IMG/VR virus record: IMGVR_UViG_3300028888_000004
Span: 1-64,000 of that record
Strand: one strand, 5' to 3'
DNA: 64,000 nucleotides
Source of the DNA: a virus
Lineage: Duplodnaviria > Caudoviricetes
Each line of letters opens with the position of its first letter. Within the stretch, counting starts at the first letter, position 1. The notes beneath the pieces are model-generated. The model was given only the letters and a program-made list of their open reading frames with translations, was not told the origin of the DNA and searched no databases. The translations under genes were made by a program, and so were the position numbers. Positions 5,355 through 7,878 of this stretch are shown piece by piece.

Positions 5355-5367
5355 CTGAATTTATTAG

Positions 5368-5441
5368 TGATTCCGTTGGGATTCGAACCCAAGACCCACA
5401 GCTTAGAAGGCTGTTGCTCTATCCAGCTGAGCTACGGAACC
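5368..5441 (-). tRNA. tRNA-Arg(TCT)
   Basis: GGTTCCG acceptor stem, anticodon arm ACAGC-CTTCTAA-GCTGT, T-loop TTCGAAT. Confidence 0.95.
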
Positions 5442-5558
5442 AGAAAATGTAAACATTGCACAATTGCATCACTGCAATCTAGTATCCATTTCCAGAAACA
5501 ATCACATATATGGCGAAAAAAGTATTCATTTTAACTATTGCAATGCTTACAATACACT

Positions 5559-5957: not shown

Positions 5958-6359
5958 TTATTTCTTGTTCATTATCCCCATGAAACTGAATTTTTTATTA
6001 TCAAATGTTATCCAGTCTTCTATGTCATTGGATTCTACTGGCTTATGACCAGGAGCTACAGCAAGAGTTATATGGCTTATCTTATTCTCTGAAGGCAAGT
6101 CAACAAGAGCTGCTATAGCATTATCTGATACTCCAAATCCTATAACATGAAACTTCACAGGGTGATGTATAATGAGATCAAGATACTTTCTTATATCTTG
6201 ATTCTTATGTGTCTTATGAAGTATTGTACAGTGGTCACAATACACTCTCCATCCTTTTAGATAAGGATTAGATAATATATCCCAGAACATTTCTTTTAGT
6301 CTTTTCTTCTCACTGTCAAGTAAGAATACTCCATAATAATTGTAATCTTTATCTTTCAT
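5958..6359 (-). CDS. 2H phosphoesterase (RNA 2',3'-cyclic phosphodiesterase-like)
   Basis: two HxT motifs (DHCTI, SHITL) at typical spacing; KPVESN C-terminal motif. Confidence 0.75.
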   Translation of the reverse strand: MKDKDYNYYGVFLLDSEKKRLKEMFWDILSNPYLKGWRVYCDHCTILHKTHKNQDIRKYLDLIIHHPVKFHVIGFGVSDNAIAALVDLPSENKISHITLAVAPGHKPVESNDIEDWITFDNKKFSFMGIMNKK

Positions 6360-6397
6360 AGAATTGTATTGTATTGTGTAACTGTTTTATCAACACC

Positions 6398-6434
6398 AAA
6401 AAAAGACAGCAAGGTGTTTATCCCTTGCTGTCTT
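6398..6434 (-). terminator. Rho-independent terminator
   Basis: AAGACAGCAAGG/CCTTGCTGTCTT stem followed by T-run. Confidence 0.85.
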
Positions 6435-7190
6435 AATCTATAAAGGCTGAGTCTTGACCTTTATTATCTTCATTTTCACCCATTGTCTGAGTTAGAACAC
6501 ACCCTTTTGAGGTAGAAGACATAGAGACGGATTCAGGTTCCGCAACCACTACACTCTGTTATATAGTCTACTCCTTTCCCAAGAACTTCTTGCCAGATTC
6601 ACAGGATGCCTCCTGCTAGAACTTTGGTACTTGTTTTAACTCATCGCAAGCCTTGCGAGCTTTTGATGTCTGCATATTACAGCAGAATAACTCTATTTTC
6701 GCAGAGTGTGCACAACACTTCTTGCAGTTAATAATTTTAATTATTAACAGATGACCTATTAGACTGTGTGGTTGTGCTTGTATGGAATGCTGCCTTTTGA
6801 GCAGTTTACCCATCAACACAGTCCTGTTACTTTCCTGCCAAGGATTTCACTACTATTACTATTTAACCTATCATTTCTGAAATCACAGTTTAGCAGACTG
6901 TGAGGTTGCTACACCTTAGGCTACAAGTATTCATTCAATGACGCTATAGACACGGCTAATGTCTTTTGGCATACATCGCACACTTCAATTGTCACTGTTA
7001 CCAGTCAAGAAGAGTTGGTCAAACCCTTCACATACTACTATCTCATCTGCCCGATGATACACCATAGTATGCTATGAAGCATGGCTTTCTTTTGGAGTAC
7101 TGTGAACCACAATACCGCAAACACACCTCTGTTAAGATGTATTTACTTTAATCCCATTGCTGGTTTATCCTATAGATGAGAAGCCCACCT
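6398..7190 (-). ncRNA. candidate large structured ncRNA (GOLLD/ROOL-like)
   Basis: ~800 nt without a credible ORF, dense nested hairpins, GNRA loop, repeated CTCAAAAGG loops, ends at a terminator. Confidence 0.55.
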
Positions 7191-7357
7191 AATAAATTGT
7201 ATTATTGCAATCACTGCAATTTAAATTTTTACTACTTCCTCATTGATGTAGTCAGTCAGTCTAGATATTTATACTCCTAAAACCTCAGAGTTGTATTGCC
7301 ATAAAGAATGACAAAAAAACACTTTTATTTATAGGGATAAGTGTGAACCCCGTCAGA

Positions 7358-7459
7358 TTATTCCTCTGTTTGCTCAAGGAATTTCTGGTATTGCTCATTT
7401 GAGTAGAACCACATTCCTTTGAAGAAGAAGAATGACTTCTCTGATGTATTGTTATCCAT
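7358..7459 (-). CDS. small protein (33 aa, not in ORF track)
   Basis: MDNNTSEKSFFFFKGMWFYSNEQYQKFLEQTEE*. Confidence 0.55.
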   Translation of the reverse strand: MDNNTSEKSFFFFKGMWFYSNEQYQKFLEQTEE

Positions 7460-7525
7460 AATAACTAGTATTTTATGGAATTGAAAGGACTCAAAAGACT
7501 CTGAAATTGTATTGCAATTCCAGAT

Positions 7526-7562
7526 AAAAAGAGCAAAGGCACCACCCGAAGATGGTGCCTTG
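7526..7562 (-). terminator. Rho-independent terminator
   Basis: AAGGCACCAT-cUUCGg-GTGGTGCCTT hairpin then T-rich tail. Confidence 0.85.
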
Positions 7563-7578
7563 ATTTCCCTGAAAGGGA

Positions 7579-7878
7579 TTAGAGGCTGAAGCCTCCAATC
7601 CTGTTGCTTTCGCCTGCTTTCATCAGGAGAAGGACATGCTCAGAGCTGCCTTCCATAACTGTGTCAGCCACAACTACTTCCGAGATGCTGAGCTGCTTGC
7701 CAGAGGCAATTTCCTCCTGAAGAGCCTTGCTGATGGCGCCCTTGGTAGCTGCACTATTATTCAGTGCAAAGAAGAGCTTGCCAGTCTTGGGATTCTTCAC
7801 AAAGTCAAGCTTTGTGGCGTGATTCCTACCGATGAATTCAACGACATTCTCCCTGGAGTTGATGGTAATGTTAGCCAT
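7579..7878 (-). CDS. conserved crAss-like small protein, first gene of the leftward block
   Basis: VKNPKTGKLFF motif; GC-richer codon usage; own terminator. Confidence 0.8.
   Translation of the reverse strand: MANITINSRENVVEFIGRNHATKLDFVKNPKTGKLFFALNNSAATKGAISKALQEEIASGKQLSISEVVVADTVMEGSSEHVLLLMKAGESNRIGGFSL

Follow-up and report, generated by a model that had tools for sequence, protein, structure and literature searches.

What occupies the roughly 1.2 kb between two minus-strand genes (5958-6359 and 7579-7878) of a gut phage, where only short ORFs are found? The window, by which the whole analysed stretch of 64,000 nucleotides is meant, is part of a virus record of 102,496 bp that is complete and has direct terminal repeats. 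The terminase, portal and major capsid proteins of the host phage are of the crAss type, and the last of these shares 71.6% identity with its counterpart in Bacteroides phage DAC15, a cultured relative belonging to the Steigviridae (Crassvirales); the carrier is a crAss-like phage of the ruminant gut. An earlier note, made from the letters alone, had placed a large, densely structured RNA here, either like GOLLD or ROOL or of a new class. The stretch 7190-6440 (minus strand) is very probably the gene for an RNA of the GOLLD family, in a divergent branch that scores below the cut-off used by Rfam. (The RNA class itself is known; this branch of it is distant and uncatalogued.) The locus has the following features, all on the minus strand.

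7579-7878, minus strand: upstream neighbour, a gene for 99 aa
7196-7225, minus strand: promoter-like site, sigma-70-like (TTTAAA, 18 nt, TACAAT; nine of 12 consensus matches)
6440-7190, minus strand: the whole RNA, very probably of the GOLLD family, about 750 nt (about 790 nt with the terminator), delimited by the extent of conservation in two alignments
6403-6434, minus strand: intrinsic terminator, a 12-bp stem with six G-C pairs followed by TTTTTTT
5958-6359, minus strand: gene for a 2H-phosphoesterase-like protein of 133 aa, past the terminator, with HxT motifs at H43 and H96
5367-5441, minus strand: tRNA-Arg(TCT), about 1 kb downstream of the RNA

Limits, coding potential and transcription signals

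Homologues were retrieved with degenerate patterns taken from conserved blocks, which led to five IMG/VR contigs and 33 metagenome contigs; once duplicates and partial copies had been removed, 31 sequences, that of the window included, made up the alignment set. (The first pattern scan returned mostly chance matches in coding DNA, and L014 was a false positive of the pattern search.) About 30 distinct homologues, on phage contigs from ruminants and other gut sources, are 55-70% identical to the window, and there is in addition one copy that is 97.5% identical. In the homologue alignments, conservation runs from about 7190 to about 6440 and the flanks are unrelated, so that the RNA appears as a discrete module; the span proposed at the outset, 6398-7190, was accurate.

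Could the region nevertheless encode protein, either in a gene that an alternative genetic code conceals or in a cluster of small ORFs? Some crAss-like phages do reassign stop codons, and small ORFs of 32-67 aa are present. However, the earlier description of the region as ORF-free stands, no ORF of at least 50 aa running across it under table 11, TAG=Q, table 4 or TAA=Q, and no long frame is opened when TAG (as Q), TGA (as W) or TAA (as Q) is read as sense. Among the 31 homologues, the longest stop-free frames are short and scattered over different frames and places, no ORF is conserved, and the substitutions compensate for one another within base pairs rather than following a codon pattern. 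A coding function has practically no probability.

The RNA is instead likely to be transcribed as such. From the signals in the DNA, it would form a transcription unit of its own, reaching from the promoter-like site that ends at 7196 to 6434-6403, where the 12-bp stem and T-run of the minus strand bear out the strong terminator that had been pointed out. The -10 hexamer of the promoter-like site ends 6-7 nt ahead of the conserved start of the RNA, while in a consensus scan such promoter-like matches were not enriched over shuffles and are no better than chance expectation. The 793 nt of the stretch fold better than shuffled controls, as predicted, whichever strand is taken (20 shuffles each; z of the MFE -3.64 for the minus strand, -3.12 for the plus strand), a result that says little by itself. 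Contigs containing the stretch occur in 20 public runs, which belong to 16 studies of the gut in sheep, cattle and other sources, and in the six of these runs that are metatranscriptomic (five studies) the contigs hold 58-94% of its sampled words; because such contigs show neither ends nor strand, and because RNA libraries can carry phage DNA, their presence there is no proof of transcription.

Several smaller elements surround the start of the RNA. Palindromes of the type ATTGCA-GTGAT-TGCAAT and CAATACAAT repeats occur on the minus strand at 7202-7218, 5462-5477 and 7500-7524, shortly ahead of where the RNA and neighbouring minus-strand genes begin, and a similar GATTGCAATAA immediately precedes the RNA of locus L025. 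They are a possible phage promoter or operator; a brief look at CAATACAAT and the ATTGCA palindrome as a promoter motif gave nothing firm. The minus strand of 7285-7579 also contains two terminator-like hairpins (7561-7536 and 7524-7500) and an ORF of 33 aa (7459-7358), the latter shared with the 97.5%-identical contig L038.

Two domains, a pseudoknot and a variable linker

A search with the Rfam covariance model for GOLLD (cmscan, RF02032) aligns the model from end to end (1-416 of 416) with 6823-6444 on the minus strand, at 93.7 bits and an E value of 8.3e-25. The gathering score of the family is 150 bits, an operational cut-off and not a biological trait, and at gathering thresholds Rfam reports only tRNAs in the window and no GOLLD; a score below 150 is here read as showing that the RNA has diverged from the seed, without putting it outside the family. 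The homologues behave in the same way. Full-length matches to GOLLD were obtained in 17 of the 20 loci searched (56-96 bits, E 1e-12 to 1e-24), the match being absent at E up to 1e-4 in L023, L042 and L044, and none of 12 loci was reported as GOLLD at the gathering cut-off. With the whole branch at 56-96 bits, below 150, routine Rfam annotation misses it.

The alignment supports a detailed secondary structure. RNAalifold gave 164 pairs and compensatory double changes at 117 of them; this structure was curated by exchanging two invariant, unsupported hairpins for the long-range helix of the Rfam model and by extending the last hairpin. In the curated structure (163 pairs in 31 helices), 95.8% of cells are paired, against 74.2% after shuffling and 37-44% after sliding, and the covariation score is 0.661, against 0.230 and about 0.1, respectively. 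Double compensatory changes are seen at 123 of the 163 pairs, and none of 500 shuffles reached the observed value of any measure. The dense structure that had been predicted is thereby borne out by covariation. G-U combinations fill 784 cells and A-C combinations 46, and from this excess it follows that the RNA is the minus strand, as had been claimed. The RNA is made up of two domains, a 5' domain of 16 helices and a 3' domain of 15 helices with a pseudoknot, and covarying helices are found in both. Mean pairwise identity is 73% in the 3' core, 65% in the 5' domain and 50% in the linker. The parts of the 5' domain are these.

6826-7190, minus strand: 5' domain, helices 1-16, all 16 of which covary
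7190-7174, minus strand: 5' hairpin
7163-7154, minus strand: GNRA hairpin CCA-GCAA-TGG
7057-7043, minus strand: hairpin CATC-GGGCA-GATG
6881-6902, minus strand: hairpin of conserved shape and variable sequence, CACAGT...ACTGTG, with another stem in each homologue
6871-6880, minus strand: GAAA-tetraloop hairpin TCA-GAAA-TGA (helix 14), near the end of the domain

A TAAAGT motif in this domain is invariant, and so are the G and the last three A of the AGAAA run of helix 14, the first A being nearly so. The TCACAGTC/AACTGTGA hairpin (6902-6881), read earlier from the one sequence, is folded by every homologue with a differing stem sequence. The one proposed helix that failed is the long-range pairing of TCTCATCT (7181-7174) with AGATGAGA (7048-7041): it is 70% paired, against 67% after shuffling, and one of its positions is unpaired in 23 of the 31 sequences. 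It is thus not supported as a conserved helix, and the two segments belong to local hairpins (helices 1 and 7).

The 3' domain, in which the better-conserved part of the RNA lies, is arranged as follows.

6444-6823, minus strand: 3' domain, with the Rfam GOLLD model aligned end to end
6761-6824, minus strand: first hairpin of the 3' domain, helices 17-19, 94-100% paired, 16 of 19 pairs with double changes
6801-6793, minus strand: UCAAAAG loop of this hairpin
6772-6777, minus strand: GCACAA in an internal loop of this hairpin, pairing with TTGTGC at 6715-6710
6716-6760, minus strand: variable linker, 45 nt here, holding an AT-rich hairpin, GTTAATAATT/AATTATTAAC
6710-6715, minus strand: TTGTGC, directly 5' of helix 20, partner of 6777-6772
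6701-6709, minus strand: helix 20, 5' arm, ACACTCTGC, pairing with 6559-6551; the long-range helix of the Rfam model
6691-6696, minus strand: helix 21, 5' arm, ATAGAG, pairing with CTCTAT at 6526-6521
6588-6686, minus strand: four hairpins within helix 20 (helices 22-26), 95-100% paired, all covarying
6662-6648, minus strand: helices 23/24, with a CGCAA loop
6615-6602, minus strand: helix 25, CAGGA-GGCA-TCCTG
6551-6559, minus strand: helix 20, 3' arm, ACAGAGTGT
6521-6526, minus strand: helix 21, 3' arm, CTCTAT
6440-6520, minus strand: 3' end, helices 28-31, with a second CAAAAG loop (6511-6503) in helices 28-30
6464-6440, minus strand: terminal hairpin, helix 31, whose loop ends in an invariant CTCAGCC

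Most of what had been picked out by eye in this domain recurs throughout the alignment. The pairing of GACTGTGT with ACACAGTC is helix 17 and covaries; CTCAAAAGG, recognised as a motif that occurs twice, is found in the loop of helix 19 and again in that of helix 29. Also conserved are the AAGCTC-GCAA-GGCTT hairpin (helix 24), CAGGA/TCCTG (helix 25) and the final TAAAGG...CCTTTA hairpin (helix 31). (Helix 26 has a GGCAAG loop.) The proposed GTTAATAATT/AATTATTAAC hairpin is present too, but as part of the variable linker, and it is peculiar to this phage. Across homologues, the linker measures 39-123 nt.

The domain has two sets of long-range contacts. Helix 20 is 99.6% paired, with double changes at four of its nine pairs, and helix 21 is 100% paired, with double changes at four of six; since helix 21 crosses helix 20, the two make a pseudoknot, both halves of which covary. 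In addition, a covarying pairing of 6 bp, GCACAA with TTGTGC, closes the linker and joins two parts of the 3' domain. It is 100% paired in the 31 sequences (slid controls, 12-65%), has double changes at four of six pairs and no one-sided change, and comes in four compensating versions, GCAC:GUGC, GUGC:GCAC, GCAU:AUGC and GCGC:GCGC.

Carriers and neighbouring genes

How widely is this RNA distributed? A second complete crAss-like phage (103.9 kb, capsid protein 66% identical) carries it, and so does a complete 170-kb phage that has no such crAss-like capsid; further carriers are contigs of 152-315 kb. The part of DAC15 that was searched (35.5 kb, 64,000-99,494, including the tRNA-Arg region), on the other hand, yielded no GOLLD at E up to 0.01. 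Shared by two crAss-like phages and by unrelated phages of large size, but not found in that part of DAC15, the RNA looks like an accessory, horizontally spread phage module. No true match was obtained when the RNA and its 3' core were compared by blastn with 50,697 GenBank phage records, nor any match to a branch-specific pattern in 185,579 prokaryote species represented by one genome each, and no cultured phage with this branch of GOLLD was found. Similarly, in the searchable literature, which is incomplete, no paper was found that links GOLLD with crAss-like phages. As the branch escapes the Rfam cut-off and is carried by crAss-like and other large ruminant-gut phages, GOLLD must be more widespread than catalogued.

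The RNA keeps company with tRNA genes, which lie within about 2 kb of it in about 11 loci (the window and about ten others), including arrays of 17 and seven; tRNA arrays adjoin it in L017, L036, L015, L034, L013, L027 and L028. In L029, a tRNA-Ile(GAU) (L029:2062-2133) is situated inside the variable linker of the RNA itself. The array of L017, a 152-kb phage contig, places 17 tRNA genes in 9 kb before the RNA (L017:800-9317, plus strand), one of them read as having the anticodon CTA, and a metagenome contig that overlaps it has a partial tmRNA match (L045:1-275, plus strand).

The earlier note was also right to place a tRNA-Arg and a 2H-like enzyme downstream of the RNA in the window. The 2H-like protein matches Pfam PF08302 at an E value of 1.6e-4 and 21.7 bits, below the cut-off of 23; a phosphodiesterase acting on cyclic nucleotides or on RNA ends is a possible identity for it. 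The second crAss-like phage has a 47%-identical homologue about 590 nt downstream of its RNA (L015:11162-11485, plus strand), followed by four tRNAs. At the other homologue loci the 2H gene was not found; a search by the 2H protein brought up one related locus, which is without the RNA, and a search by the neighbouring 921-aa hydrolase brought up none.

With a gene following on the same strand, and doing so again in the second crAss-like phage, the RNA could be taken for a structured leader, or another cis-regulatory element, of the 2H-phosphoesterase gene. This is extremely unlikely, however, as a strong intrinsic terminator stands between the RNA and the gene, most homologue loci have unrelated downstream sequence that lacks a 2H gene, and several relatives have a terminator of their own directly after the RNA. 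An RNA gene that ends at its own terminator is the preferred reading, and the adjacency of RNA and 2H gene may reflect shared ancestry rather than function; outside the window it is repeated only in the second crAss-like phage, so that a functional tie is no more than possible. It is conceivable, but distinctly unlikely, that in crAss-like phages GOLLD forms one functional module with the 2H phosphoesterase next to it and the tRNA genes that come after, in which the cage would hold or shield tRNAs (or their fragments) and the 2H enzyme would process 2',3'-cyclic or 2'-5' ends, countering host anticodon nucleases or cyclic-nucleotide defence. If true, such a module would give GOLLD its first function, and the recurrence of the order GOLLD-2H-tRNA in two crAss-like phages makes it a testable lead.

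Some loci have further elements beside the RNA. A conserved element of about 70 nt, seen at L015:9720-9788 with equivalents in L019, L020, L026, L027, L031, L037 and L047, and located 3' of the RNA in L028, L029 and L032, is built of two hairpins, first CTCCCA...ACCTNTACGTGGTT...TGGGAG, whose stem covaries, and then TCC-TTCG-GGA; it is not present in the window. At the same site, other loci have hairpins with AGTGAAAT or GTCGTGAGATA loops. The element may be a processing signal, a promoter or terminator signal, or a small RNA. Finally, L031, a rumen contig, has a match to a type III hammerhead ribozyme (L031:837-895, plus strand) that falls below threshold (42.6 bits, cut-off 48.5) and precedes its GOLLD-like RNA by about 1.9 kb.

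Comparison with known large RNAs

GOLLD RNA has been known since 2009 (Weinberg et al.), and expression that rises during phage lysis is counted among its traits. It is encoded by phages and prophages near tRNA islands, many of its members exceed 800 nt, and its linker, which is variable, has tRNAs within it in some cases (Kretsch et al. 2025; PMC12286853). By cryo-EM, the GOLLD env-38 is an RNA-only cage of 14 subunits (D7) with the linker inside; it has a conserved GAAA loop, L11a, and self-pairing loops, L21a and L21b (PMC12286853).

How far does the likeness go? The first 108 nt of env-38 (Kretsch et al., Supplementary Table 4) align colinearly with the 5' end of the branch and share its order of elements: hairpin, AAUAAA, GNRA hairpin, GAUAAAGUG, hairpin, UGCG. 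By eye, env-38 could also form a linker-closing pairing, UGAUAGAC with GUCUAUCA, and it has a GAAAU...GGUAGG element where the branch has its GAAA-loop hairpin (6880-6871); these comparisons are leads rather than tests. The GAAA loop of helix 14 may correspond to L11a, and the GC-containing loops of helices 22-26 resemble L21a/L21b, a putative equivalence judged by eye. (The Bacteroides sp. entries of 183 nt that Kretsch et al. include in their supplementary GOLLD alignment are not this sequence.)

Alternatively, the RNA could represent a separate class of large phage RNA that arrived at a few GOLLD loop motifs by convergence, in which case the cage could not be transferred to it. Every member tested does fall below the gathering score (56-96 against 150 bits), and several pairs are flagged as non-canonical in the cmscan alignment. 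Convergence, however, is hard to reconcile with a match that covers the whole GOLLD model at an E value of 8e-25, with the colinearity of helix order, long-range helix, linker position and terminal CUCAGCC hairpin, or with a 5' domain that lies outside the model and whose first stretch of about 110 nt still aligns with env-38; a linker that holds a tRNA and a location beside tRNA genes are likewise traits of GOLLD (PMC12286853). A separate class is very unlikely, and of the possibilities named in the earlier note it is membership in GOLLD that the full-length match upholds, neither ROOL nor a new class.

As a member of the GOLLD family, the RNA would probably self-assemble, copies of it forming a closed multi-subunit cage without protein by way of loop-loop and A-minor contacts between them, with the linker facing the interior; the basis for this is homology with env-38, one solved GOLLD (PMC12286853). 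Since a tRNA lies in the linker of one relative and tRNA genes are neighbours of the RNA, it has been proposed here that the cage acts on tRNA or on translation during lytic growth, which is possible but rather doubtful. Finding the branch does not by itself reveal what GOLLD does. The roughly 30 diverse sequences can, on the other hand, serve to refine the family model and to test which of the contacts between subunits are conserved.

Of the known large RNAs, ROOL (rumen-originating, ornate, large), an octameric RNA-only cage (PMC12286853), resembles the present RNA in being a large, ornate RNA of rumen phages that is often near tRNA genes. It differs in sequence and secondary structure, which here are those of GOLLD; the ROOL covariance model had no match in 6200-7700 even at E up to 10, which rules out that identity, and no other large RNA matched either. 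With GOLLD, the branch has in common a length of about 0.75-0.8 kb, its carriage by phages near tRNA genes and a 3' domain that is the better conserved, a variable linker that follows the first 3' hairpin and can hold a tRNA, a long-range helix with a pseudoknot, UCAAAAG and CGCAA loops, and the terminal CUCAGCC hairpin. It departs from the catalogued family in its scores, 56-96 bits against the curated 150, and in its hosts: known GOLLD RNAs come from prophages of Lactobacillales or Mycobacterium and from lake and marine samples, whereas the carriers described here are large ruminant-gut phages, crAss-like ones among them.
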